Shown here piece by piece: positions 13,817-63,940 of a stretch of DNA of 64,000 nucleotides (positions are counted from its first letter, which is position 1; the number at the start of each line of letters is the position of its first letter). The position numbers and the translations under genes are program-made. Below the pieces are notes generated by a model, which worked only from the letters and a program-made list of their open reading frames with translations, searched no databases and was not told the origin of the DNA. This stretch comes from Patescibacteria group bacterium (lineage in GTDB: Bacteria > Patescibacteriota > Minisyncoccia > Phycocordibacterales > JAACPR01). Where the stretch lies: contig JAKLEX010000001.1 in assembly GCA_022711495.1 (NCBI GenBank), forward strand, positions 370,171 through 434,170. The letters are read 5' to 3'.

Positions 13817-13835
13817 CGAAACAAATTAAATTTAA

Positions 13836-14912
13836 ATGGCCGAGCTATTAACTTTTTCCAGAGAAACTTATAACGAGGAGATAAAAAACTTCTTGGATAA
13901 AAATTACGCACCGCTAACGCAGTATGATTTTTACGGCAATTGGCAAAAGGCCGTCGGAAGAGATGTCTATGAATTTTCAATCAGAAATTCCGCTGGAGAA
14001 CTGGTGTTGTATTCCCAAGCCATCTCAATCCCCGCAGGACTTAAGAAAAAGTTTTTATACTGCCCATATGGACCAATCATCAGTAAAAAGATCTCCGAAA
14101 ATCCGGTTAAACTAACGGAGTTACTCAATTTTTTGAACGAGAAAATCTCGACGTTTTTGAGAGAAATCGACCATTCTTTCCTTAGACTTGACTTCACCCC
14201 CAATATTGATAATTTCGCGCAAAATAGCCCAAATTTGACCCTAAAAAGGGCCCCCAAATGGTCAGAGGGGGGATCTTTCTTCCAGCCGCGACTGGAAACC
14301 GCCCTCAACCTGTCAAAAGGCGTGGACGATCTATATTCGGAGATAGATTCAAAAAACCGCTATGCCATCAGGTTGGCCGAAAGAAAGGGGATCAAAATAG
14401 AGATTATTCTAGAAAATTTCTTAACCCATTTTGAAACTTTTTATCAGATGATTAAAGATACGGCTGACAGAAACTCTTTTAATTTGCACAGCAAAAAATA
14501 TTATCTGGAAATATTCAAAGATCTGGATAAAAGAAAAAATGGTCGATTGGTTTTGGCAAAAGTGGATGAAACAATCGCTACTTGTCTTGTTTTTGTGGAT
14601 TTTAACAAGACGACGATGTTTTTACTCGGGGCTTCTTTGACTGAATTAAATAAAAAAGTTCCAACATCTCACTTGGCTCATTGGAAAAATATAGAATTCG
14701 CCAAAAAATCCGGGTTAGAAATTTATAACTTTGGCGGAATATCTAAGGAAAAATCCCGCTCGGACAGTTTGAGCGGCGTAACTATGTTTAAACGAAGATT
14801 TGGCGGATATGAAATTAAACATTCTGATTATTACGACTTAGTTGTAGACAAAATCGGCTATAGAATATTCCTATTCAAGAAATGGCTTCGCTGGCTTAAA
14901 AATCTGATATAA
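13836..14912 (+). CDS. FemAB-family protein (probable peptidoglycan interpeptide-bridge aminoacyltransferase)
   Basis: Length and residue pattern resemble FemAB/MurM. Located right after the dcw genes and the M23 peptidase. Assigned by pattern recognition only. Confidence 0.5.
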   Translation: MAELLTFSRETYNEEIKNFLDKNYAPLTQYDFYGNWQKAVGRDVYEFSIRNSAGELVLYSQAISIPAGLKKKFLYCPYGPIISKKISENPVKLTELLNFLNEKISTFLREIDHSFLRLDFTPNIDNFAQNSPNLTLKRAPKWSEGGSFFQPRLETALNLSKGVDDLYSEIDSKNRYAIRLAERKGIKIEIILENFLTHFETFYQMIKDTADRNSFNLHSKKYYLEIFKDLDKRKNGRLVLAKVDETIATCLVFVDFNKTTMFLLGASLTELNKKVPTSHLAHWKNIEFAKKSGLEIYNFGGISKEKSRSDSLSGVTMFKRRFGGYEIKHSDYYDLVVDKIGYRIFLFKKWLRWLKNLI

Positions 14913-14923
14913 TAAGAGCATCT

Positions 14924-15166
14924 ATGAAATCATTATGTGTGGCAGGGAATTCTAGGGGTTTTATAAGGTTAATAATACTTTTAATCGTTATTTTGGTGAT
15001 AGCCAGTCTGCTTGGGTTTAGTCCACAGTATGTCTGGACTAATTATTTAGCACCAATATTTGGTTTTATTTGGCGTTTAATCGTCGCGTTTGCTGGCTTC
15101 TTGGTTAAGTTACTAAAAGCTGCGGGTGAGGCCTTTGACTATCTTCTTGATTTAATTAAAAACTAG
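14924..15166 (+). CDS. Small hypothetical membrane protein (80 aa, 2 hydrophobic helices)
   Basis: ORF with two hydrophobic segments. No recognisable family. Confidence 0.35.
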   Translation: MKSLCVAGNSRGFIRLIILLIVILVIASLLGFSPQYVWTNYLAPIFGFIWRLIVAFAGFLVKLLKAAGEAFDYLLDLIKN

Positions 15167-15223
15167 CGCCTTTCGGGCTTTCTCATATATAGTGTCGCAA
15201 AAGGTATATTGTGCGACGTTATA

Positions 15224-15736
15224 CTACCTTTTAGCTATCACCACCTCGCGGACATTATTCCAACAATTGGAAGAATGAACCCACGGATCTGTGCCATATT
15301 TATCGTACAAATATTTGGCGTAAGCCATATTACCTTCAAGAGAATAAATATCGTATCCGAGCATTACGGCTGTTCCTGCATGATATCGCTCGTTGATCTG
15401 CATCAAGCCAACATCGCTTGGATTAACCTTACCCCTTAAAACGCTGCCGTCAGCGTTGAATTGATAAAATTTTGATTCGCAATAAGCAATATCCACTAAC
15501 ACAGGAGTTTCGTTGAAATATTCTTCAGTCAATTGCTTTACTGTTTTAATAGCAGGATCAATCGTTTCGTCATAAAAATCCATATCAAAATCCGTTTGCC
15601 CAAGCCAATCGGACACTCCATTCGGCTCCGAAAGCAGGTTAATCCCCTGTCTCGTGTCTACGACAGGAGTAAGAATATTTTGGTTCAATATCAGGCTATC
15701 AGTCGTCTGACTGGTCGCGCTAGCAACTGAAGTCAT
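15224..15736 (-). CDS. Lytic transglycosylase-like (SLT domain) protein, probably secreted
   Basis: Catalytic E-S context (CESKF) plus the GLMQIN motif typical of the SLT lysozyme-like fold. The upstream in-frame sequence (KFIIQIALGLSL-) looks like a signal peptide but has no ATG, so the start is uncertain. Confidence 0.55.
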   Translation of the reverse strand: MTSVASATSQTTDSLILNQNILTPVVDTRQGINLLSEPNGVSDWLGQTDFDMDFYDETIDPAIKTVKQLTEEYFNETPVLVDIAYCESKFYQFNADGSVLRGKVNPSDVGLMQINERYHAGTAVMLGYDIYSLEGNMAYAKYLYDKYGTDPWVHSSNCWNNVREVVIAKR

Positions 15737-15966
15737 TAAAGATAACCCTAGAGCAATTTGTATAATAAATTTTTATTAATTTTAATCTGCGCGCAAGACA
15801 TCGTTACAGAAATCGCAGGTTCTGGGCAGAATCCGGTTTACTGGGCCTAGAACTAAAAAACTCAAGCATTCGCCTGAGTTACATCTCATATTCTAGCACG
15901 GGTTGCCCAAATTTGTCAAATGTTATAATCGCCTTATTTATAGCCCTATAATAGGCATATTTAAAC

Positions 15967-16332
15967 CTACTCGCAGTTTGCCGCCAGCGTATATCCGGCC
16001 CCTTCGGCGGCCTCAATCGTCGAAAAATATATCTTATTTTCATTTTTGATCCGATTGGCGCCTGAACAATGGACAAAATAGTATTTTTTACCATTCTTTG
16101 AGGCCACAATATTCCCTCCCCCTGTTGCAACTAACTCCTTCTCTGGATTTAAAATATTCGGATAAAAGTTCTTTATTATCTCAATTTCCGGCGGAGTTTT
16201 TATTCGAAGAAGGAGAAATACTCCTAAAACATCGACCATAATCAGGAATGAGGCAAAAAAGACGGTTATTTTAGCCAAAATCAAGCGGCCTGCCCGGCTC
16301 TTGATTTTTTCCTTGATTTGTTCTAAACTCAC
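15967..16332 (-). CDS. Membrane-anchored protein with C-terminal Ada-like metal-binding-type domain
   Basis: N-terminal TM helix. C-terminal YYFVHCSGANRIKNENKIYFSTIEAAEGAGYTLAANC resembles the Ada N-terminal Zn-binding domain pattern (FC..C...EN..FF....A...GFRPC..C) but with fewer Cys. Tentative. Confidence 0.45.
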   Translation of the reverse strand: MSLEQIKEKIKSRAGRLILAKITVFFASFLIMVDVLGVFLLLRIKTPPEIEIIKNFYPNILNPEKELVATGGGNIVASKNGKKYYFVHCSGANRIKNENKIYFSTIEAAEGAGYTLAANCE

Positions 16333-39538: not shown

Positions 39539-39610
39539 GGCGTGGTGGCGAAGTGGAAACGCTGCGGTCTGCAAAACCGCCATGCGCGGGTTCGATTCCC
39601 GCCCACGCCT
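39539..39610 (+). tRNA. tRNA-Cys (anticodon GCA)
   Basis: Acceptor GGCGTGG/CCACGCC, anticodon loop CTGCAAA, T arm GCGGGTTCGATTCCCGC. Begins 3 nt after the rbfA stop. Confidence 0.8.
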
Positions 39611-39661
39611 CAATAATGTTTAAACTCCCGCGCGGGAGCCGGAACATTAGAAAAAAAATAA

Positions 39662-39743
39662 GCTCGGGTGGCGGAATTGGTATACGCGCACGACTTAAAA
39701 TCGTGTCTCGCAAGGGATGCGGGTTCGACCCCCGCCCCGAGCA
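39662..39743 (+). tRNA. tRNA-Leu (anticodon TAA), type II
   Basis: Acceptor GCTCGGG/CCCGAGC, anticodon stem CACGA/TCGTG with loop CTTAAAA, long variable arm, T arm GCGGGTTCGACCCCCGC. Confidence 0.8.
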
Positions 39744-39781
39744 CAATAAAGACGAAATTATTGAGCCGTTTTTATTGAAAC

Positions 39782-39854
39782 CCGCCCATAGCTCAGTTGG
39801 TAGAGCAGTCGCCTCTTAAGCGATTGGTCGTAGGTTCGAGTCCTACTGGGCGGA
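39782..39854 (+). tRNA. tRNA-Lys (anticodon CTT)
   Basis: D arm TAGCTCAGTTGGTAGAGC, anticodon loop CTCTTAA, T arm GTAGGTTCGAGTCCTAC. Acceptor CCGCCCA/TGGGCGG gives a C1-G72 pair, so the 5' end may be off by one. Confidence 0.7.
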
Positions 39855-39919
39855 CAAAGAAAATAATGATAGGTCAGATGCGTTAACACACGGCAAGTTT
39901 ATCTCCGTCGGTTAGCCAG

Positions 39920-41209
39920 TTAGATGGAATACCTAACAACTACAATACCCGAGCCACCATTTCCGCCATTTTGTGTATACCCACCTCCTCCTCCGCCACC
40001 GCCAGTATTTGACTCACCGTTTGAAACTTCGGCTCCATCATACTGGCCACCCTGGCCACCGCCGCCCAAACCGCCATCACCATATTCAACCGTATTTGAA
40101 TCTGTACCACCGCCTCCGCCACCGCCATAATAAGTGGCTACACCGGTAATGCTAGAGGAGATTCCATCTCCACCGTCTCCTCCACCGGCATCATATAGAG
40201 CAGAGTCGCCTATTTCTCCAGCGCCTCCTCCCCCTCCGCCAGAGCCTATGCCAGGGGCGGAGTTACCACTTCCGCCATCATTTCCTTGCGCCGGAGCAAC
40301 TTCTGGAGTATTACCCAACCCACCACTGCCGCTTGAATGAGCGCCCCCGCCACCAGAACCGCCATTGCCACCATCACTATCGCCATAGCCACCACCATAC
40401 CCTCCACCCGCGGCACTGGTTGTGTCAAAAAGACTTGCACTACCGGCATTTCCTCTGGCATCTTCAACTATCGCGCCAGCTCCTCCATCACCAATTGTTA
40501 CGGAATAGTCACCGGCATCTAGAGATTCACCATCTAATTCTATGACGCCGCCACCGCCGCCACCGCCAGCAGCATGTCTTCCTCCCCCGCCACCGCCACC
40601 AACAACCAAGATATCAGCAGTTAGAGTGGTAAGAGCGGTAAATGTATCATCGGAAGTAAATGTGTGGACACAGTACGAGCCGTCTTCGGTAACAGTTCCG
40701 CCAGTAGCATAATCGGCACAGGCATCCTCCCCTCCACCCTCTTCTTCAACCAATGAAGTTGAAGTTCCAATGACAACGCCGCCTAATCCTTGTTCTTTTG
40801 AACCTGGAGCAATCAGAGCCAGCTTATTGCCAGTCTGAAGAGCTATTTCGTAATTACCACCATTTGGATTTTCTGGTAGAGCTGAAAGATAAGTTGGAAC
40901 TAGCTCAGCTGAAAGATCAACGCAATCTGGTTCTACTGTATCACCACCGGTATCGCAGATTTCTTGGAGACTGCCATCTAATCCATCCGGCCAGTCTAGT
41001 TCGTCTATATAGTATTGTTGGACAGCTTTATGAATAGCATTTAAATCACTGGCTCTTTGAGCGTTTCTGGCTTGAGCTAGTTGTCTAGAAGGATTGATGG
41101 CCACGATAACGATCGCTGCCAAAATGGCGATAATGGCGATGACCAGAAGCATTTCCAGGAGAGTGAAACCTTTTTGAGTATTTCGTTTCGATAATTGAAA
41201 GAAAGACAT
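39920..41209 (-). CDS. Type IV pilin-like protein (class III signal/N-methylation motif) with very long glycine-rich C-terminal domain
   Basis: N-terminus MSFFQLSKRNTQKGFTLLEMLLVIAIIAILAAIVIVAI is the prepilin cleavage/methylation motif plus hydrophobic alpha1 helix. A ~120-aa pilin-like head is followed by ~270 aa dominated by poly-Gly tracts (GGGGGGG…), ending …GGSGIVVVRYSI. Confidence 0.7.
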   Translation of the reverse strand: MSFFQLSKRNTQKGFTLLEMLLVIAIIAILAAIVIVAINPSRQLAQARNAQRASDLNAIHKAVQQYYIDELDWPDGLDGSLQEICDTGGDTVEPDCVDLSAELVPTYLSALPENPNGGNYEIALQTGNKLALIAPGSKEQGLGGVVIGTSTSLVEEEGGGEDACADYATGGTVTEDGSYCVHTFTSDDTFTALTTLTADILVVGGGGGGGRHAAGGGGGGGVIELDGESLDAGDYSVTIGDGGAGAIVEDARGNAGSASLFDTTSAAGGGYGGGYGDSDGGNGGSGGGGAHSSGSGGLGNTPEVAPAQGNDGGSGNSAPGIGSGGGGGGAGEIGDSALYDAGGGDGGDGISSSITGVATYYGGGGGGGTDSNTVEYGDGGLGGGGQGGQYDGAEVSNGESNTGGGGGGGGYTQNGGNGGSGIVVVRYSI

Positions 41210-41361
41210 ATAGATAACTTATTGTTATGAACCGACTTATAAAGTTTGATGTAGATATTATACTATGGGGAGAAAAAAAATAAAGTAAGTATTGTGAGTC
41301 TATTTTTGGGTTTGAATTTAGCGGTTGTTCGTGTAATATTAATAACAGGTAAATTTGTAAA

Positions 41362-41444
41362 GCGCGGGTGGCGGAATTGGCAGACGCACTTGCCTTAGGA
41401 GCAAGCGAGGTTCCCTCGTGGAGGTTCAAGTCCTCTCCCGCGCA
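41362..41444 (+). tRNA. tRNA-Leu (anticodon TAG), type II
   Basis: Acceptor GCGCGGG/CCCGCGC, anticodon stem CTTGC/GCAAG with loop CTTAGGA, variable arm CGAGGTTCCCTCGTG, T arm GGAGGTTCAAGTCCTCT. Confidence 0.8.
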
Positions 41445-41520
41445 CAAATAAACAAAGAACGTCAGCTCAAGGGCGAGCCGGCGTTTTTTGTTTTTGTGGT
41501 ATTTCTATCTGGTGCCGTAG

Positions 41521-41551
41521 TTGACAAACCGACATTATTCGTGATATAATT
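41521..41551 (+). promoter_or_regulatory. Consensus sigma70-type promoter (TTGACA, 18-nt spacer, TATAAT) upstream of the GC-rich cassette; RBS AAGGAGAAGG precedes the ATG at 41616
   Basis: Sequence gTTGACAaaccgacattattcgtgaTATAATtc read directly. Perfect -35 and -10 hexamers. Confidence 0.5.
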
Positions 41552-41615
41552 CATGCAGATTCAGAGACCCGAGCTTTAAAAGCTCAAAACAACAGTACAT
41601 TGAAAGGAGAAGGTT

Positions 41616-42707
41616 ATGAACGTCATTGGAGCTTGGATGATTGCGGGATGCATTGGAATTCTGGCGATTTTTTCGGCCCTCGTGGGCGTCGTCAAGGTTA
41701 AGGAAAATAAGCCAGTGGAACAACTGTCGCGCTGGACCTGGTTTGTCCTGTCGCGGTTGTTTGTTGGTGCCCTCGCCTATGCGGCGACCATCAATATTCT
41801 GGCAACTTTTTCCGATTCAGATCCAAACTGGGCTTGGTATTTCGGTGGGATCTTGGTCGGCCTAAGCGTTTTCGCCCTGATGATCGAATTGACGCACAAG
41901 TCTGCGCTCTTTCGATTGGCAGGTAATAAATTCGCGCTGGCCACCGATATCTTCTTTGGACGAAGGGCAACTTTCATCCGTGAAGATATGGATTGTGCCA
42001 TTCGGACTTACCGGATCTATCTCGGTGGTCTGAATGCCAAGTTCGACTGGGAGATCGTTGAAATCGTCGACGAATTCAATCGTGATGTGATCGACACGAT
42101 CTCCTCAACGGTAGAATTCGAAGACTCGCCGGGGCTACTCTCTGGTAAGTATACGCTAAGACCCGATCCGGAGAGATTGCAGTACTTCGCTGCGACGAAT
42201 GTCGATACCGCAAAAAGAGATGCTCTCCTAAAGGAGGCTTTTGGCGGCTACGTAAGAATGTACTTGAGTGATTTTCTCAAGACAAAAAAAATCGACGGGG
42301 CCATGGCCACTAAGGGCACCCTGTTCGACGAACTCCCTGAATCTGTCAAAACAGAGCTCCGACGCCAGGAAGAAAAGTACGGGGTCAAGTTAAACACCCG
42401 TATCATCGACAACATTGACTATCCGCCAGAACTGGCGAAGGTCAATGAGCAAATATCGGTGATGGCGCGGATACGAGAGATGGTTAACTTCCAGCTAGAG
42501 AGCTGGGGTAAGACCAAGGAGCAGATCGAGGGTAAGGCTGATCGGGGAAATGTCACGCCCGAAGAGCGGAAAGAAGCGGAAAGACTGGTGTTGGCGATTA
42601 CCGAACAGGTTCCGGAAAGGACACTTCGGCACATCATCGATGGGCGTCTCGACAGCAAAACGGCTGGCAAGATTATCCTGGGCATCAATAGCGGAAAGGA
42701 GGAATGA
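41616..42707 (+). CDS. Polytopic membrane protein with C-terminal SPFH/band-7-like region (tentative); GC-rich, probably horizontally acquired
   Basis: Three N-terminal hydrophobic helices. The C-terminal segment …GVKLNTRIIDNIDYPPELAKVNEQISVMARIREMV resembles the SPFH core (…GI.V..V.I.DI..P.EV..AM…). Codon composition is visibly GC-richer than the flanking genome. Confidence 0.45.
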   Translation: MNVIGAWMIAGCIGILAIFSALVGVVKVKENKPVEQLSRWTWFVLSRLFVGALAYAATINILATFSDSDPNWAWYFGGILVGLSVFALMIELTHKSALFRLAGNKFALATDIFFGRRATFIREDMDCAIRTYRIYLGGLNAKFDWEIVEIVDEFNRDVIDTISSTVEFEDSPGLLSGKYTLRPDPERLQYFAATNVDTAKRDALLKEAFGGYVRMYLSDFLKTKKIDGAMATKGTLFDELPESVKTELRRQEEKYGVKLNTRIIDNIDYPPELAKVNEQISVMARIREMVNFQLESWGKTKEQIEGKADRGNVTPEERKEAERLVLAITEQVPERTLRHIIDGRLDSKTAGKIILGINSGKEE

Positions 42708-43279
42708 TTATGGTCGAGCCTACCATTCGTAGCGTTGATAAGCGGACGATCCGTCTTTTCGTCTGGGCACCCCTCGGAGTGATCTTGGCGATAGTCGTCC
42801 TGATCACCGGCTATGTCCATCGGAGAGAAATCTCCGAGTGGATAACCGAGCTTGCTCGGGAAAAAACGGAGACGCGGCAACCTGTGGCAACACAGCCAGT
42901 CGCGCCTCAAAACCAGACGTCAGTCCCCCACCTGCGAGTCTACAACCTCGTACCGGGCGGAGACCACGTTTCGGTTCTATTCCGTGATTCCGAGAACGAT
43001 GCCCTCGCCTGGTACGGCGATGGCGGTTGTTACCAGGTTCGATACATTAAGCAAGACGGAATGACCTGGAACGCACCGGGCTGTATGCCGGGTGGTTGGA
43101 TCTGGGCAATCCCAGGAATCCATTGGCAAACGGTTTACCAATGGATTGGGGAACCGCTGGCCATACAGTTCAGGGTTCCGGCAACCAGGATAGAAAAGTC
43201 CTGGGGACGCAGGGTTGAGAAACCCTGCGCGCCAGTGACGCTTCACGTATCGCTGAAACCGATACGAGATCCGTCCTGA
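42704..43279 (+). CDS. Hypothetical membrane-anchored protein (1 TM plus Trp/Gly/Cys-rich ~140-aa domain), translationally coupled to the upstream gene
   Basis: ATGA overlap with the preceding ORF. TM helix FVWAPLGVILAIVVLITGYV. No recognisable family. GC-rich like its partner. Confidence 0.45.
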   Translation: MIMVEPTIRSVDKRTIRLFVWAPLGVILAIVVLITGYVHRREISEWITELAREKTETRQPVATQPVAPQNQTSVPHLRVYNLVPGGDHVSVLFRDSENDALAWYGDGGCYQVRYIKQDGMTWNAPGCMPGGWIWAIPGIHWQTVYQWIGEPLAIQFRVPATRIEKSWGRRVEKPCAPVTLHVSLKPIRDPS

Positions 43280-43302
43280 CAACAAAACGACAAGTAGTAA
43301 CC

Positions 43303-43338
43303 CAAAAGGCTCCGAGAGAGATTCCCGGAGCCTTTTTT
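43303..43338. terminator. Rho-independent terminator (bidirectional hairpin between the convergent cassette and pilin-array operons)
   Basis: aaaaGGCTCCGagagagattcCCGGAGCCtttttt: GC stem flanked by an A-tract and a T-tract. Confidence 0.7.
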
Positions 43339-43411
43339 ATTTTGACCCTACTTCAATCTGTGGAGAGTGAGTTATGAGACTATCAAATCTCCCGCCCTAA
43401 TTTTATCCGTC

Positions 43412-43657
43412 TTATCCGTAAATTGTATCCAGGGCCAATTTGATTATGCCGAAAACCGATACCATGATCAGCATTCCGATGAGCCCCCAGATTATGTGGC
43501 GGCGACCAGTTTCTCGAGCTTCTGGATTGCTAGCGCCCTTGATATAGTTGAAAATTCCCCACAAGAAAACAACCAGGGCTACGGCAAAAAGCAACCTTAT
43601 CAAGGGGTTAACAATAACAGAGGCGATCTTTGACAGAAAACTGTCTACTGACGACAT
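43412..43657 (-). CDS. VirB2/TrbC-like (T4SS-pilin-like) small two-helix membrane protein, paralog 1 of 6
   Basis: 81 aa. Hydrophobic helix, then …FLWGIFNYIKGASNPEARETGRRHIIWGLIGMLIMVSVFG…, the two-TM hairpin with charged loop shared by all six paralogs. Confidence 0.6.
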   Translation of the reverse strand: MSSVDSFLSKIASVIVNPLIRLLFAVALVVFLWGIFNYIKGASNPEARETGRRHIIWGLIGMLIMVSVFGIIKLALDTIYG

Positions 43658-43689
43658 AGAAGTATTTTAAGACTATTCCCAATTCTACT

Positions 43690-44028
43690 TTAGTTTGGAA
43701 TACCAGGAACATTAATTCCGCTTGTTCCGCCAGCATCAATATCCAAGGTGTCGCTTAGTAATTCAACCAATCCCCAGACAGAAACCATGACGAATAGAAC
43801 AATAATTCCGTAAATCATCACGTATCTGGCCTCCTTTCTCTTGTCATCATCCGTGGCAATAATGTATTGCAAAATTCCCCAGATGAAAACGATGACGGCG
43901 ATACCAATAACCAAAGGAATAAGAGCATCAATAATTGACTTGATCTTATCAATCACCCCTTCTATTCCGCTGGCCGCCAAAGCGACTACTGGAAACAAAG
44001 AAACCGCTAAACCTGAAATATATTTCAT
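43690..44028 (-). CDS. VirB2/TrbC-like (T4SS-pilin-like) small membrane protein, paralog 2 of 6 (with signal peptide)
   Basis: Signal peptide MKYISGLAVSLFPVVALAAS. Core …FIWGILQYIIATDDDKRKEARYVMIYGIIVLFVMVSVWGLVELL. Confidence 0.6.
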   Translation of the reverse strand: MKYISGLAVSLFPVVALAASGIEGVIDKIKSIIDALIPLVIGIAVIVFIWGILQYIIATDDDKRKEARYVMIYGIIVLFVMVSVWGLVELLSDTLDIDAGGTSGINVPGIPN

Positions 44029-44135
44029 AATTATAATCTTTAAATTTAAAAACTATTAATTAAACGATTAATAGCTATACGAGTATTATACATCAAAAGC
44101 CCAGTTAAAAACACAAGGTCCTGTGGATTTAAAAA

Positions 44136-44399
44136 CTAATAGGTAATCTGCGGAATACCGAAATTAAAGCCAAAACTATTGCTTAACATCTGGAGAATTC
44201 CCCAGACAGAAGTCATGACAAATAGCCCAATTATTCCGGCTATAATATAAGAAATGCTCTCTTTTCTCTTGTTTTCATCGTCAGAATTGAAGATATAAGC
44301 TATCAGGCCGTAAACAAAGACAAATAGAGATAGCGCGATAATGACCGTCACGATCTTGTTGCTGTAAGTTATAAGACGATTTATTAGTGTCGCGAACAT
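44136..44399 (-). CDS. VirB2/TrbC-like (T4SS-pilin-like) small membrane protein, paralog 3 of 6
   Basis: Core …FVYGLIAYIFNSDDENKRKESISYIIAGIIGLFVMTSVWGILQML. Confidence 0.6.
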   Translation of the reverse strand: MFATLINRLITYSNKIVTVIIALSLFVFVYGLIAYIFNSDDENKRKESISYIIAGIIGLFVMTSVWGILQMLSNSFGFNFGIPQITY

Positions 44400-44404
44400 G
44401 TTTA

Positions 44405-44710
44405 TTATTTTAATATTAAATTTTGTACTGATTGAGTTTGTGAGTTGGTAATATTGGCATCAGTAATACCCAGAGTTCCCTTCACCAGGGCGACCAAACC
44501 CCAAACAGAGACCATGACGAACAAAGTTATCAGCCCAAAGATTATGACCTTGGTTGAACTTTGTCGACTCTCCGCGTCTTTTGATACAACATATTTGAAA
44601 ATCCCATATATAAAAGCTAAAGTCGCAATGCTAATCAACAGACCCATCAAGCCAGATGAGCCGCCGCTACCGGAAAGAAAATTGATGATTTTACTTAATA
44701 GATTGTCCAT
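44405..44710 (-). CDS. VirB2/TrbC-like (T4SS-pilin-like) small membrane protein, paralog 4 of 6
   Basis: Core …FIYGIFKYVVSKDAESRQSSTKVIIFGLITLFVMVSVWGLVALV. Confidence 0.6.
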   Translation of the reverse strand: MDNLLSKIINFLSGSGGSSGLMGLLISIATLAFIYGIFKYVVSKDAESRQSSTKVIIFGLITLFVMVSVWGLVALVKGTLGITDANITNSQTQSVQNLILK

Positions 44711-44716
44711 GTGTTT

Positions 44717-45103
44717 TTAACTTTGGAGACCCTCAACTCCCAATTCCCCGGCGGTTTCTATGATGATATTGCTGATGGCCTGTGCGCCCAACAATACAAT
44801 CGCGCCAATAACCGTCCAGAAAAAGACGCTTTTGGCTTTTCTGATTGCCTCTTCGTTGCCCTGCGCGGTGACGAATAAGAATCCGGCGTAAATTATGGCC
44901 AAGACCACAAAGATGGCGCCAACTTTGGCGAAGACGCCTAGAATAACTCCCACTAGTTGTTGTAAGCTGCCAACTTTTGAGATCGGGTTTTGCAAACCGC
45001 TACTGCCGGCCGGGGTCTGAACACTACCATCTTGAGCGAGAACAATGCTCGGTAACAATCCCGAGACAAAAGTCGTAAGCGAATATTTTAAGTATCTGAA
45101 CAT
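44717..45103 (-). CDS. VirB2/TrbC-like (T4SS-pilin-like) membrane protein, paralog 5 of 6 (longer, with signal peptide)
   Basis: Signal peptide MFRYLKYSLTTFVSGLLPSIVLA. Core …LAIIYAGFLFVTAQGNEEAIRKAKSVFFWTVIGAIVLLGAQAISNIII matches the Gram-positive/CPR T4SS-pilin consensus as I recall it (…GGFQYITSAGD..K…A…IGLV…). The ORF track starts at 45154; I trimmed to the internal Met. Confidence 0.6.
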   Translation of the reverse strand: MFRYLKYSLTTFVSGLLPSIVLAQDGSVQTPAGSSGLQNPISKVGSLQQLVGVILGVFAKVGAIFVVLAIIYAGFLFVTAQGNEEAIRKAKSVFFWTVIGAIVLLGAQAISNIIIETAGELGVEGLQS

Positions 45104-45116
45104 GTTAATGGTTTTA

Positions 45117-45506
45117 TTATCTAATAAATTTGTTATACAGCGACACGATATCACCTTTCAAGCCAAACGCGGCGGCGATTAAATCAACAATCAAGAAACT
45201 GCCAACGGCTAGTAGAAAGCCTATTAGTATGTTTGAGAAAACCGAATGAGCCTTTGAGATTTTGCCCGAATCGCCGCCAGCCGACAGATATAAAAATCCA
45301 GCCCAAGCAAAGCCGATGGCCGATAGAACCATTCCTAATTTCAGGACATAGGCGATAACATCGCGGATCATCTGCCCTAGAGCGTAAAAGTTACATTTTT
45401 CTGGATCAGTACATGGAACAAGGCCGGCCGAGGCGATGTTCACCCAAAAAATAAACAACGCCAGGACAAATGTGGAGGCCAAAACTGTTTTTAAAAGCGA
45501 TTTCAT
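45117..45506 (-). CDS. VirB2/TrbC-like (T4SS-pilin-like) membrane protein, paralog 6 of 6 (with signal peptide and Cys pair)
   Basis: Signal peptide, then a CTDPEKC pair. Core …SAIGFAWAGFLYLSAGGDSGKISKAHSVFSNILIGFLLAVGSFLIV. Confidence 0.6.
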   Translation of the reverse strand: MKSLLKTVLASTFVLALFIFWVNIASAGLVPCTDPEKCNFYALGQMIRDVIAYVLKLGMVLSAIGFAWAGFLYLSAGGDSGKISKAHSVFSNILIGFLLAVGSFLIVDLIAAAFGLKGDIVSLYNKFIR

Positions 45507-52111: not shown

Positions 52112-52699
52112 TTAGTTAAATTTATTCATCGCCAAAAGATAACCGTCGGTGACTATAGTCTCAATAGAATCGACGGTTTTCTTTTTTATTTTTTTAAGAA
52201 TCTCTTGCTCCTTGCTTGAAAATTTACCGAGAACATGCGCAACCACGGCTTTTTCACCGCTCGGTTTTTTGATTTTCCCCATTCCGGTTGTCGGCGAAAT
52301 ACCGATCTTTATTCTCGGAAAAGCCTCGGTTTTGACGGCCCTGATGACCGATTCCACTCCCCGATGTCCGCCGCTGCTTTTATTGAAAACAATTTTTGAC
52401 GAGCCTACTCCCATATCAAGCTCGTCGTGAATCACGACCATATCCAGAGCTTTTTTCTTATTATTTATAAATTTCTTGAGGGCTAGACCAGAATTGTTCA
52501 TGTAAGTATCTGGCAAGATAAGCAGAACTTTTTCTCTGCCGATCTTCCCTTCTGAAAGACTGGCACAGACTTTCTTGTCATAAACAAAATCATCAAACTT
52601 AAATTTTTTAATTAAACTTCTGACAATGTCTCGCCCGATATTGTGACGAGTCTCTTCGTATCTTTCGCTAGGGTTTCCTAGACCAATAACAAATTTCAT
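52112..52699 (-). CDS. pth: Peptidyl-tRNA hydrolase
   Basis: MKFVIGLGNPSERYEETRHNIG… is the canonical Pth N-terminus. The ORF track extends 12 codons further upstream. Confidence 0.85.
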   Translation of the reverse strand: MKFVIGLGNPSERYEETRHNIGRDIVRSLIKKFKFDDFVYDKKVCASLSEGKIGREKVLLILPDTYMNNSGLALKKFINNKKKALDMVVIHDELDMGVGSSKIVFNKSSGGHRGVESVIRAVKTEAFPRIKIGISPTTGMGKIKKPSGEKAVVAHVLGKFSSKEQEILKKIKKKTVDSIETIVTDGYLLAMNKFN

Positions 52700-52726
52700 G
52701 AAAACGATTATAAATTTTGAAATAAC

Positions 52727-53332
52727 TTGTGTCAAACGGTTTTATGGATTAAAATGACCAGCAAACAGATGAGCGACGATCCTAAAATCAAAACCAAAGC
52801 CTCCGGAATAAAAGATTTTATCAGCTTTATTGTCATAACGGCCATCGTGGTTTTACCGATCCGCATATTTGTGGCCCAACCTTTCGTAGTCAGCGGCTCA
52901 TCCATGTCCCCAACTTTTGAGAATGGCGAGTACCTCATCGTGGATCAACTCTCTTATAATTTTTCCGAACCGGCGCGCGGAGACGTCATAATTTTCAGAT
53001 ACCCGATTAACCCTGAAAAATTTTTCATCAAACGAATAATCGGTCTGCCGGGCGATACCGTGAAAATAGATGGAAATGAAGTTCTTATTAAAAACGCGGC
53101 AAATCCAGAAGGAATTAGCCTGGATCAATCCTTCGTGGTTTTTTCTCAAGAAACTTCACTGGAGATCACGCTGGCGGACGATAATTATTTCGTCATGGGA
53201 GATAATCGAGCGGCCAGTCTTGATTCACGGTCCTGGGGACCGTTGAAAAGAGATTTAATCGTCGGCAGGGCTTTTATCAGATTGTGGCCATTTAATAAAA
53301 TTGATTATTTGCCGGGTGGATTTTTATATTAA
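52727..53332 (+). CDS. lepB: Signal peptidase I
   Basis: SPase I boxes: VSGSSMSPTF (catalytic Ser), RGDVIIFRYP, and FIKRIIGLPGD with the catalytic Lys region. An alternative start lies at 52754. Confidence 0.85.
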   Translation: MCQTVLWIKMTSKQMSDDPKIKTKASGIKDFISFIVITAIVVLPIRIFVAQPFVVSGSSMSPTFENGEYLIVDQLSYNFSEPARGDVIIFRYPINPEKFFIKRIIGLPGDTVKIDGNEVLIKNAANPEGISLDQSFVVFSQETSLEITLADDNYFVMGDNRAASLDSRSWGPLKRDLIVGRAFIRLWPFNKIDYLPGGFLY

Positions 53333-59644: not shown

Positions 59645-60658
59645 TCATGCCTCCCTTTCCACCCTGGTTCTATACTGCTGGGTATTTGTCAGGATCTCGG
59701 CGGTCGTATCGGCATAACGAAGCAGAATTTGAGCGGCTTCGCGAAATATCTGTTCCATGGCTGTCGTAGCCGGTCTTTTGTGCTTTTGGAAGTAACGATA
59801 TATCGTCGGGGTCAGCTGGAAATCCTCGAGTTTCATAACGAGAGCGCGAACTCGAGGAACCAAAGCCCGGAACGATTTATCATCATCGGAGGCTTTTTTC
59901 TCCCGCGGCGGTTTCTTCCCCCTCAACGACAGCCGCAAGAATTTCCCCTCGGAAATTAACCGGCGGAGCATCTCGTTGAGAACAACCGGGCTTGTCCCCT
60001 GCGCCCTCTCTTTCTCAATCTGCTGGAAAAGTTTCAACTGCTCGACCTCGGTCTTAAGCGTTGATAAACGCAAGGCCGCGGAAAAACTGATCCGATCCCT
60101 TTCAGGAGTCGGCGGATCAAGTTTCGCCAAAATGTCTGGGTGAAGTCTGGCCAGAGAAGTATAGTTGAGAACCCAACTTATCTTCTTGCCCACCGCCACG
60201 GCAATTTGATCGGCGGACATTAAGTTGGCCCGCAGAGCAATAACTGCTTTGATCTTTTCCTGGTGAGTGTGGTCAATCCGATTGAAGTTGGATATCAAAG
60301 ACAGCAGATGTTGCTGATTGAAGTCCTTTACCTGACAGATGATTATACGAATCGTCTTCAGGCCAGCCTGTTTAATGGCTCGCCAGCGCCTTTCACCGTC
60401 AATGAGTTCGTACTTCGCCCCATTGAGAGACTGCTGGAACTTTATGACCAAAACCGGCTGGGCTTGACCATTAGTTTTAATGCTTCCGGCCAAAGCCGTA
60501 AGTTCGTCCGGATCAAAATACATCCGCGGCTGATCCTTGAGCGGCGTAATTTCATCAACCGGCACCGTTAAAACCCGATTCTCCTCAACAACGAACCCGG
60601 CGTCAATCAACTGTTTCCGCGTCGCTTCCGACTTGTCCATCTGATTGCTATTTTTCAC
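59645..60658 (-). CDS. ParB/Srx-like nuclease-domain protein (337 aa) on a GC-richer islet
   Basis: ParB N-terminal-type motif …YELIDGERRWRAIKQAGLKTIRIII…, an HTH-like middle and an uncharacterised basic C-terminal domain. Visibly higher GC than neighbours. Confidence 0.55.
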   Translation of the reverse strand: MKNSNQMDKSEATRKQLIDAGFVVEENRVLTVPVDEITPLKDQPRMYFDPDELTALAGSIKTNGQAQPVLVIKFQQSLNGAKYELIDGERRWRAIKQAGLKTIRIIICQVKDFNQQHLLSLISNFNRIDHTHQEKIKAVIALRANLMSADQIAVAVGKKISWVLNYTSLARLHPDILAKLDPPTPERDRISFSAALRLSTLKTEVEQLKLFQQIEKERAQGTSPVVLNEMLRRLISEGKFLRLSLRGKKPPREKKASDDDKSFRALVPRVRALVMKLEDFQLTPTIYRYFQKHKRPATTAMEQIFREAAQILLRYADTTAEILTNTQQYRTRVEREA

Positions 60659-60775
60659 CTTAATTCTCCTCTTTGTTTTTCAAGAACTTCCTGCGCTATA
60701 AATTACACTTTTAATCGGAAAAAGCAACCAAGAAAAAACACCATCGCCGCGATGGTGTTTGCAACATAAGACTGT

Positions 60776-61189
60776 TCAAATCGTTTTGACTACCGCTGCC
60801 CTGGCAGTTTTGGCGGCCGTGGCGGTTTCCCTTGCCGCATCCAGATCCGCTTGAGCGCGGGCCATCAGATAAGCAGAGATAAGTTCGCGATGAGCCCAGA
60901 TAGTATCCTCAAACGCCCGGAGAAAGTGGCAGGGACAATTAATGACAGTTTGCTTGCCATCAACAGTTCCCCAGGAAACATACCCATCGGAATGGCAGAT
61001 GTATTTGTCGGGATTGACTGCCCGTTTCCTTTCCAGGTCGTCAAGCTCTCCCGGTTCCATATCCGGGCTGTCGTCGTAGTAATGAATTCTTCCGCACTGC
61101 TGACAATCAACCACCAAACTGCCCGATTCAGGAACCAATTCCTTGATCGTATCCGACGGTTGCCTTTTTGAAAAGACCTTCATCCTCAT
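60776..61189 (-). CDS. Hypothetical Cys-rich protein (putative zinc ribbon: CQQCG…CHSDG…CPCH), Ala-rich C-terminal helix
   Basis: ORF on the same GC-rich islet as the ParB-like gene. Cys and His spacing suggests metal binding. No family recognised. Confidence 0.4.
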   Translation of the reverse strand: MRMKVFSKRQPSDTIKELVPESGSLVVDCQQCGRIHYYDDSPDMEPGELDDLERKRAVNPDKYICHSDGYVSWGTVDGKQTVINCPCHFLRAFEDTIWAHRELISAYLMARAQADLDAARETATAAKTARAAVVKTI

Positions 61190-62935: not shown

Positions 62936-62969
62936 AATACTTTTCGAGTGCTCGAACGGCGCTCGACAC

Positions 62970-62989
62970 TGTGACCCTACGCGGAATCG
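62970..62989. repeat. 20-nt direct repeat of the tRNA-Glu 3' end (tgtgaccctacgcggaatcg), second copy at 63159..63178; att-like scar
   Basis: Exact 20-nt match read from the sequence. The downstream copy is the last 18 nt of tRNA-Glu plus 2 flanking nt. Confidence 0.6.
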
Positions 62990-63127
62990 GTCACAGGTTC
63001 TCAATAATTATAGTCGCTCGGTCTATTAAATCAAAGTCGCCCTCGCTCCTTAATTATTGGACCCGCGACCCCGCCTCACTCGCTTCGCTCGTTCCGGCTT
63101 TCGATCCCGCTGGACCCACACAAAAAA

Positions 63128-63156
63128 CACCGCAGACAAGCTGCGGCATTTTTGTG
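63128..63156. terminator. Bidirectional Rho-independent terminator, immediately 3' of tRNA-Glu on the minus strand
   Basis: aaaaaacaCCGCAGacaagCTGCGGcattttt: hairpin with an A-tract on one side and a T-tract on the other. Confidence 0.65.
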
Positions 63157-63160
63157 CGTG

Positions 63161-63232
63161 TGACCCTACGCGGAATCGAACCGCGCTTCCAAGCTTGAAA
63201 AGCTTGTGTCCTAACCGATAGACGATAGGGCC
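63161..63232 (-). tRNA. tRNA-Glu (anticodon TTC)
   Basis: Reverse complement folds as acceptor GGCCCTA/TAGGGTC (one G-U pair), anticodon stem CAAGC/GCTTG with loop TTTTCAA, T arm GCGCGGTTCGATTCCGCG. Confidence 0.75.
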
Positions 63233-63294
63233 GAGGTTTCAAAAATATATCAAGATTTTCAGAAAAAGGCAAAAATGCTATTGTTTAAAGTTAC

Positions 63295-63383
63295 GGAGAG
63301 GTGGCAGAGTGGTTGAATGCACCGGTTTCGAAAACCGGCAAGTCCAAAAGGCTTCGGGAGTTCGAATCTCCCCCTCTCCGCCA
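63295..63383 (+). tRNA. tRNA-Ser (anticodon CGA), type II, CCA encoded
   Basis: Acceptor GGAGAGG/CCTCTCC, D arm GCAGAGTGG, anticodon stem CCGGT/ACCGG with loop TTCGAAA, long variable arm, T arm GGGAGTTCGAATCTCCC, terminal GCCA. Confidence 0.8.
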
Positions 63384-63466
63384 AAATTGACACAAACTAG
63401 CTCAAGAGATAGGATTCCGAATGGAATAAGTAGTTTCAACAACGATTCAAACAAAAGGAGGAAGCC

Positions 63467-63940
63467 ATGTCTCGCGCTGATATTCACGATTGGTTTCGCG
63501 CTAAAATGAAAGAGCACCGCTTTTTCGTCGGTTTCTGGATTGCTCTCTTCGCCTTGGGCATTATCGCGCTTATCGCGAATTTGTCCGTCGCGCTTGAGCT
63601 CCAGGCGATCTCGGAAATTGAAAGCTGGTCTCCCAAGACTGTTCAGATGTATTGTAACGCTCTTCTGTGGATCACGCTGATATCGTTGGTTTATCATGCC
63701 AAATATCGCGACAAGTATCGTGGGCCGGCGGCGGCGATTGATACGGCCTTTTTTGCCGTGATGTTGCTGGGCACGTTCATTGAAGTCCCGGGGCTTAGCT
63801 CAATCAATACCCTGTTATGCGTGGCCATTTCTGCCGGTTTAATCTGCTGTGGCTACCGCAAACTGCTGGAAGTTCGCGGGTCAAGACGAAAGTTCTCGGA
63901 TCCGTGGCCGCAAAACGGATTTGATGACAACGGTCTATGA
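63467..63940 (+). CDS. Hypothetical polytopic membrane protein (157 aa), GC-rich, immediately downstream of tRNA-Ser
   Basis: RBS AAAAGGAGGAAG before the ATG. Four hydrophobic helices. Composition visibly GC-richer than the core genome. Confidence 0.4.
   Translation: MSRADIHDWFRAKMKEHRFFVGFWIALFALGIIALIANLSVALELQAISEIESWSPKTVQMYCNALLWITLISLVYHAKYRDKYRGPAAAIDTAFFAVMLLGTFIEVPGLSSINTLLCVAISAGLICCGYRKLLEVRGSRRKFSDPWPQNGFDDNGL

Follow-up and report, generated by a model that had tools for sequence, protein, structure and literature searches.

Does a GC-rich gene pair beside a tRNA gene have to be a recent import? This question is raised by a locus in a Patescibacteria group bacterium (assembly GCA_022711495.1, contig JAKLEX010000001.1, positions 370,171 to 434,170). 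The whole stretch of 64 kb that was analysed is termed the window here. Downstream of its tRNA-Leu(tag) gene lie two genes, A and B, together designated the cassette, which an earlier note had regarded as an insertion acquired horizontally from a donor with higher GC content. The comparison with related genomes yields a different answer: The slot is ancestral and always occupied, and the cassette did not enter a previously vacant site beside the tRNA gene. It is probably an ancestral, vertically maintained operon of the Paceibacteria that encodes an SPFH scaffold and its partner in a fixed slot and at a hypervariable, GC-biased locus. What is new is an SPFH operon whose partner belongs to a novel family and whose locus is fixed in position, yet hyperdivergent and persistently enriched in GC. 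The cassette and its signals are arranged as follows:

41362..41445, + strand: tRNA-Leu(tag), found by ARAGORN; last gene of a tRNA quartet and upstream landmark of the slot
41521..41550, + strand: putative sigma-70 consensus promoter, TTGACA-18-TATAAT with an extended -10 TG; 12 of 12 positions match
41604..41609, + strand: Shine-Dalgarno sequence AAGGAG of gene A, 6 nucleotides (nt) 5' of the ATG at 41616
41616..42707, + strand: gene A, open reading frame (ORF) of 363 amino acids (aa); three predicted N-terminal transmembrane (TM) helices, SPFH (Band 7) alpha/beta domain and coiled-coil helices
42698..42702, + strand: Shine-Dalgarno sequence GGAGG of gene B, within the 3' end of gene A
42704..43279, + strand: gene B, 191 aa (189 aa from the ATG at 42710); one predicted TM helix, Pro/Thr/Gln-rich linker and Trp-rich beta-sandwich domain
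43304..43343, + strand: putative intrinsic terminator with an 11-bp GC-rich stem and a U-run, found as inverted repeat and by RNA folding; it separates the cassette from the convergent pilin array

An RbfA-based scan of species-representative genomes provided 70 Paceibacteria loci for comparison (L-numbers below denote such related loci). In 23 of the 70, IF-2 and RbfA are followed by the tRNA quartet Cys(gca), Leu(taa), Lys(ctt) and Leu(tag), and about 20 of these 23 continue with a convergent array of type IV secretion system (T4SS) pilin-like genes and then with SBP, a methyltransferase and GyrA. The slot is bounded by this quartet and this array. In essentially all such loci, the interval between tRNA-Leu(tag) and the pilins holds a gene pair on the + strand. 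The first gene, which often overlaps the second, encodes about 330-470 aa, usually with two to three N-terminal TM helices; the product of the second is a small membrane protein. Both A and B have homologues directly 3' of tRNA-Leu(tag) in L077, L079, L081/82, L083 and L085. L077, L079 and L085 share the upstream order of the window, ClpB to RbfA, four tRNA genes and the pair; in L081/L082, RbfA is followed by the pair. L077 (GCA_964402215.1) has the gene order of the window throughout, from ClpB to GyrA. Its GyrA gene (13819..16318, - strand) is split into two ORFs of 653 and 170 aa, by a frameshift or an assembly error. In profile searches, the first slot genes of L006, L016, L022, L024, L025 and L074 proved to be A homologues, too, and the A homologues found with phmmer (see below) occupy the same position. 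In total, an SPFH gene with a small membrane partner was found in the slot in about 26 lineages, about 20 of them beyond the closest relatives. In L083 and L085, the pair and the pilin array are about 6 kb apart, with housekeeping genes such as iPGM, enolase, MscL and VanY in between. Since the pair stays next to tRNA-Leu(tag) there, its linkage to the tRNA gene is tighter than that to the pilins. In the window, the array (43412..45506, - strand) comprises five or six small two-TM T4SS-pilin-like genes (PF18895, TrbC/VirB2-like), and it is conserved in relatives.

Against this background, a recent genomic island from a higher-GC donor that integrated with its own promoter next to tRNA-Leu(tag) is extremely improbable. 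The cassette does share with tRNA-linked islands the tRNA neighbour, an atypical GC content and codon usage (GC, GC content at third codon positions (GC3) and codon adaptation index (CAI) deviate by 3 to 5 standard deviations) and a self-contained promoter and terminator. Furthermore, word-indexed searches of 5.8 billion proteins with A and B retrieved only the two proteins themselves, from a metagenome-assembled genome of Candidatus Paceibacterota. However, homologues of both genes occupy the same site between conserved flanks in the closest relatives, the promoter is kept together with them, and the elevated GC3 is a property of 24-25 of 26 lineages. Unlike that of an island, the site was never seen empty in relatives, where it contains either homologues or an SPFH pair, always the same kind of gene pair. 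The 20-nt 3' end of the tRNA occurs only once in the window, even when three mismatches are allowed, and no direct repeat of the tRNA end is found within 41300-43700. Only A and B are located between the tRNA gene and the pilin array and neither has a mobility domain, i.e. there is no integrase or mobility gene in this interval. Pattern scans of metagenomes and viral contigs as well as tblastn searches against phages gave no relatives of the cassette. The insertion proposed in the earlier note has to be abandoned: Neither the flanking repeats of the tRNA-Leu 3' end nor the close relatives lacking the cassette that it had suggested looking for were found, and orthologues at the same position in related genomes, which it had itself named as a refutation, are present. 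A horizontal component in a weaker sense may nonetheless exist, with recombination inside the clade replacing one cassette allele by another.

The lineage-specific insertion of this tRNA cluster is not the SPFH cassette but a gene at 39920..41209 (- strand), located between tRNA-Lys(ctt) and tRNA-Leu(tag), for a type IV pilin-like protein of 429 aa (N_methyl prepilin motif and Gly_rich_2). It is absent there in L077, where the two tRNA genes adjoin. Its GC content of 0.505 is owed to Gly codons, and its GC3 is only 0.33. Insertions of 0.2-3.3 kb are found between differing tRNA pairs depending on the lineage (39539..41445; loci L006-L074). Therefore, the tRNA cluster is an insertion hotspot.

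The tRNA gene, promoter, ribosome-binding site and terminator that had first been noticed in the sequence were all recovered at their positions. Two perfect promoter sites are present in the 64 kb compared to 0.03 expected. The other one, TTGACA-N17-TATAAT at 52707..52735 (- strand), is located just 5' of the peptidyl-tRNA hydrolase gene (52112..52699, - strand). In seven of eight close-clade loci, the cassette promoter is found with identical hexamers, 18-nt spacing and TG, whereas the remaining leader has diverged. AAGGAG or GGAG upstream of the A homologues is conserved as well. The terminator folds with -18.9 kcal/mol (z = -3.9), and none of 200 shuffled sequences folds equally well. Gene B has two in-frame ATGs, 42704 and 42710, and gene callers disagree on them (191 vs. 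189 aa; the 189-aa form is P0002). The ATG at 42710, and with it the 189-aa product, is probably the genuine start, because it is spaced 7 nt from GGAGG and the ATG at 42704 only 1 nt. B would therefore start 2 nt past the A stop codon. This means, the translational coupling assumed for the pair holds in the sense of a tight arrangement, and the ATGA overlap that had been part of this assumption is unlikely. Judged by these signals, the pair is a tightly coupled operon whose consensus promoter and ribosome-binding site are both strong and which ends in a terminator.

The high GC content that had drawn attention to the cassette was corroborated by computation. GC amounts to 0.51 for the cassette, 0.51 for ORF A and 0.56 for ORF B compared to 0.42 for the window. 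GC3 is 0.60 in A and 0.62 in B vs. 0.425 ± 0.058 (z = +3.3 and +3.6). CAI values calculated against the window's own genes are 0.65 and 0.62 vs. 0.738 ± 0.022 and thus the lowest among 59 ORFs. This anomaly is not confined to the window. Across 26 lineages, GC3 exceeds the local background in 24 cases for the SPFH gene and in 25 cases for its partner, with mean excesses of +0.14 and +0.20, respectively (Wilcoxon p ~1e-7). The excess is greatest in AT-rich genomes and gone in GC-rich ones. Examples are L077 with 0.46/0.42 for the cassette compared to a background of 0.22 and L055 with 0.60/0.63 compared to 0.29. Cassette GC3 follows host GC3 only in part (slopes 0.60 and 0.44), and the GC3 values of A and B correlate with each other (rho 0.80). 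The compositional anomaly is a steady-state property of the gene pair and not the trace of one recent import. A plausible cause is that the locus is prone to recombination and experiences GC-biased gene conversion, since an association between recombination and GC3 has been published for bacteria (Lassalle et al., 2015, PMC4450053). GC3-rich genes elsewhere in the window, at 59645..61189 (- strand) and 62936..63940, are more likely than the cassette to be foreign DNA. They encode a ParB_N-domain protein (GC3 0.59), a 136-aa protein (0.54) and a 157-aa protein (0.595). The gene for the latter adjoins tRNA-Glu and tRNA-Ser, and an intergenic stretch rich in GC (62936-63159, GC 0.53) is nearby.

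In nearly all related lineages, the pair is both the fastest-diverging and the most GC-enriched unit of its neighbourhood. Between the window and L077, the flanking proteins are 63-91% identical, whereas A and B show only 35% and 29% identity (BLASTP E 6e-56 and 7e-14). A second independent pair of loci, L083 and L085, gave 42% for A and 41% for B compared to 52-94% for the flanks. In the subclade of the window, A identity scales with that of IF-2: It is 41% between L077 and L079, 35% between the window and L077 and 26-31% to L085. For the cassette of the window, this speaks for vertical descent at a very high rate of evolution. Taken over all alignable pairs, SPFH and IF-2 identities are correlated with a Spearman coefficient of 0.63. 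Other species are discordant. L021 and L034 have an IF-2 similarity of 0.84 normalised bits, but their SPFH genes cannot be aligned by BLASTP (E 2.5), although both match Band_7 above the Pfam cutoff. The SPFH genes of L025 and L074 (IF-2 0.78, SPFH E 35), each of which also hits Band_7, and those of L039 and L018 (IF-2 0.78, SPFH E 34) are likewise unalignable. According to IF-2, the species of these discordant pairs are as close to each other as the window is to L077. Furthermore, SPFH types group across distant species: L039 with L067, L058 with L026, and L018, L029, L055 and L059 with one another. These discordant pairs may reflect either allele replacement between lineages or an extreme heterogeneity of rates.

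What do the two genes encode? A and B alone yielded nothing significant in Pfam, NCBIfam, PADLOC or PHROGs; a match of phrog_19615 (E 3e-4) was dismissed, as it spans TM helices only. With tblastn, A and B gave no matches in the loci of the 70 relatives, and homology emerged only with profiles. An exhaustive phmmer search revealed eight full-length A homologues with 28-35% identity; the additional match P0011 was discarded as a spurious repetitive protein. Nine of 13 A-family members match Band_7 (best E 1.4e-8), and so do 12 of 18 further slot genes, among which L021, L034, L018 and L026 exceed the Pfam cutoff. Against PDB sequences, the A-family profile recovered human prohibitin-2 over about 200 residues (E 3.6e-6) and, with weaker scores, prohibitin (E 0.009) and stomatin chains (E 0.07-1.2). 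No SPFH-type subfamily model of NCBIfam (HflK, HflC, prohibitin, slipin, flotillin) was matched by any of the 13 members. An AlphaFold model of A built from the family alignment (mean predicted local distance difference test (pLDDT) score 79.7) comprises three hydrophobic N-terminal helices (2-26, 37-65, 72-97) and, beyond this anchor, strands in 98-183, helices in 185-255, a strand at 257-268 and helices at 271-296 and 315-328. When this model was compared with the PDB using Foldseek, the top 25 matches were all SPFH cage proteins (E down to 4.6e-9) of the prohibitin, HflK/C, stomatin, flotillin, erlin and vault types. Because of the Band_7 matches of its family, the profile match to prohibitin-2 and the exclusively SPFH-type Foldseek matches, A is designated a divergent SPFH (stomatin/prohibitin/flotillin/HflK-C) protein, an assignment made by family profile and predicted fold. 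The earlier description of a three-TM protein with an SPFH/band-7 core in its C-terminal part agrees with this model. The positive-inside rule suggests that the SPFH domain of A is located in the cytoplasm.

B contains one TM helix, in agreement with the earlier note, and ten Trp residues (5%). Its homologues were found by reading the genes just 3' of each A homologue. In all seven independent loci with downstream DNA, A is followed by a B homologue at an intergenic distance between -4 and +28 nt. Positions P-G, W, R, G and G-W are invariant in the family. In the predicted structure (pLDDT 74), a long TM helix is connected by a disordered Pro/Thr/Gln-rich linker to a beta-rich domain that is modelled with confidence (77-183). 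None of the eight B-family members matches a Pfam family, NfeD (PF01957) included, at E <= 1. B has no match among PDB sequences at E <= 10, and a BFVD search with B returned nothing at E <= 0.001. The C-domains of NfeD proteins are defined by a five-stranded OB-barrel (PMC4208085). The fold modelled for B differs from this barrel. By this definition and by the lack of an NfeD sequence signature, B is not an NfeD protein. Instead, it is an obligate, co-inherited single-pass partner and represents a new non-NfeD family, in line with the earlier view of an obligate partner from an unknown family. Two further apparent similarities were not retained. A jackhmmer connection between the B family and the gene upstream at L060 proved to be a TM-helix artefact (E 0.32 with L060 left out of the profile), and a cluster of the partners from L020, L024, L025, L047 and L074 showed no significant ectodomain similarity after removal of the TM helices.

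Among the known SPFH systems, prohibitin and HflK/HflC are closest to A. Its best profile match is the prohibitin-2 mentioned above, its best structural matches are PHB1/2 (4.6e-9) and HflK/C (8e-8), and the predicted order of N-terminal membrane anchor, SPFH alpha/beta domain and coiled-coil helices is the same. SPFH3 and SPFH4, the prohibitin and HflK/HflC types, have no NfeD partner (Hinderhofer et al., 2009, PMC2636767), and neither has the cassette. In contrast to these proteins with their single TM helix, A has three, and its coiled-coil and C-terminal region is much shorter, limited to the last two helices of the model. Whereas HflK and HflC are two paralogues, the cassette lacks a second SPFH gene and has a non-SPFH single-pass partner instead, and the SPFH domain of A is predicted to be cytoplasmic, whereas that of HflK/C faces the periplasm. 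The stomatin and flotillin operons with NfeD (SPFH1, SPFH2 and SPFH5; the examples compared were PH1511-PH1510, YbbK-YbbJ and YuaG-YuaF) resemble the cassette in another respect. They combine an SPFH gene with a small membrane protein that carries one or more TM segments at its N-terminus and a soluble all-beta domain at its C-terminus, and stomatin and flotillin are strong structural matches to A. SPFH proteins and their NfeD partners co-evolve and move together (PMC2636767); similarly, A and B vary together, as is evident from their pairing in 7/7 loci and their common GC3. B differs from NfeD proteins by having neither the NfeD signature nor a ClpP-type protease domain, but it occupies the place of NfeD in the operon. 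In the searchable literature, no description of SPFH systems in bacteria of the candidate phyla radiation (CPR) was found.

The following picture can be proposed by analogy. HflK/C (with FtsH), prohibitin, stomatin and flotillin form cages in solved assemblies. A might likewise oligomerise, giving a ring or cage attached to the membrane that delimits a microdomain, with its SPFH domain, according to the positive-inside rule, on the cytoplasmic side. By analogy with SPFH-NfeD operons (PMC2636767), B could be a stoichiometric partner or a client, which would be recruited via its TM helix or its domain. It would be functionally analogous to NfeD and structurally different from it. The locus itself would be hypervariable and probably prone to recombination, and GC-biased gene conversion and/or allele turnover would keep the cassette richer in GC and more divergent than its flanks.

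Several observations weigh against the preferred view of an ancestral operon with an SPFH scaffold. A alone matches no Pfam family at E <= 1, Band_7 (PF01145) included, and reaches no NCBIfam threshold. The positive-inside counts of A favour an N-out/C-in topology, but are modest, and those of B are ambiguous. Outside the eight loci of the close clade, the partner cannot be recognised as B-like, and hhalign comparisons of the B family with the other slot partners yielded probabilities of 21% or less. The contigs from five of the 13 cassette-bearing assemblies are 100% identical over 12-21 kb and thus give no evidence of recombination. Finally, the GC contents of leader (0.40) and trailer (0.43) are not significantly raised compared to intergenic DNA (0.346 ± 0.072). 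Since the GC excess is essentially restricted to coding sequence, it provides no independent support for regional GC-biased gene conversion.

The same restriction to coding sequences would fit a GC3 excess that results from selection linked to translation or expression, with the operon being expressed at a very high level. A perfect extended -10 promoter and a strong Shine-Dalgarno sequence that are conserved in the close clade, an excess that is largest in AT-rich and vanishes in GC-rich genomes, and the similarly raised GC3 (0.54) of the T4SS-pilin gene at 44717..45103 would all be consistent with such selection. Nevertheless, it is quite unlikely to be the cause, as the cassette has the lowest CAI of all ORFs in the window, and ribosomal protein S1, IF-2, ClpB and GyrA have an ordinary GC3 of 0.40-0.45. 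S1 and IF-2 are presumably highly expressed, so that simple codon optimisation is a poor explanation. In addition, G-ending codons have increased as much as C-ending ones (G3 0.31 vs. 0.197 ± 0.023), and GC1, GC2 and the amino acid composition have shifted, too: Arg replaces Lys, with R/(R+K) values of 0.50 for A and 0.71 for B vs. 0.31 ± 0.09. A possible, although not the likeliest, explanation is recurrent replacement: an ancestral slot in which divergent SPFH-partner alleles from other Paceibacteria are swapped by homologous recombination in the conserved flanks, i.e. the tRNA genes and the pilin array, so that divergence and GC anomaly would both mark imported alleles. Such replacement has much in common with the preferred reading and differs from it in crediting divergence to exchange and not to evolution in situ. 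It would account for the three species pairs with similar IF-2 and unalignable SPFH genes, for the clustering of SPFH types over distant species, for the merely partial dependence of cassette GC3 on the host (slope 0.44-0.60) and for the common composition of A and B. On the other hand, A identity scales with IF-2 within the window's subclade, as vertical descent predicts, and the overall correlation among alignable pairs points the same way. The mean GC3 of the cassettes (about 0.5) is higher than that of their hosts (about 0.35), an offset that a pool of alleles from these hosts fails to explain. Moreover, no close donor allele of the window's cassette is present among 15 billion proteins, and the clade-2 partners share, by eye, a short W-T-x-I motif over different SPFH types, which hints at divergence in situ.

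Arms-race selection could produce a comparable pattern if the cassette were an anti-phage defence or surface-interaction module, for instance a membrane sensor, an abortive-infection effector or a determinant of phage or host contact. The extreme divergence relative to the flanks, the discordance of SPFH types between species, the location in a variable tRNA-side region where other genes come and go, and a Pro/Thr-rich stalk with a beta-sandwich domain in B, which would fit an exposed ectodomain, are in agreement with this idea. We consider it very unlikely. In PADLOC-DB 2.0, A matched only ZorC with E 0.047, which is not significant, and none of the 13 A-family and 8 B-family members gave a hit at E <= 0.01. 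Nuclease, protease, NTPase or toxin domains are found in neither family, the slot is filled throughout the clade, unlike typical defence genes with their patchy distribution, a literature search gave no SPFH-based defence system, and the membrane orientation of B is ambiguous. Of the earlier guess of a membrane-microdomain, stress or defence module, the defence part lost ground with the missing PADLOC match, and a microdomain role is what the analogy to SPFH proteins suggests. A rather speculative and on balance unlikely extension is that the SPFH cage and its partner are a cell-envelope determinant, involved in host contact or in phage reception or exclusion, of these episymbiotic CPR bacteria that is under diversifying selection, is renewed by recombination or by exchange of alleles among lineages and carries a permanent GC footprint of biased gene conversion. 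The preferred reading is still that of an ancestral operon maintained by vertical descent in its fixed slot.

SPFH proteins are ubiquitous membrane organisers, and their functions in bacteria are unclear. Despite the tiny genomes of CPR bacteria/Patescibacteria, every sampled member of the Paceibacteria keeps one SPFH operon at a fixed locus, which argues for an important role in the envelope. The combination of a strict position, an extreme sequence turnover and a GC excess independent of the lineage makes the locus a natural test case for distinguishing recent horizontal gene transfer from steady-state processes, such as recombination with GC-biased gene conversion or selection, where a compositional "island" has to be explained. 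It is also a warning that a GC deviation beside a tRNA gene is insufficient evidence for a genomic island. The finding would gain weight if diversification driven by recombination or a function in envelope interactions were demonstrated. Should the cassette indeed be such a diversifying envelope determinant, it would be the SPFH-based counterpart of loci for antigenic variation or of the O-antigen type, and it could serve as a natural marker for recombination in the genomes of CPR bacteria.

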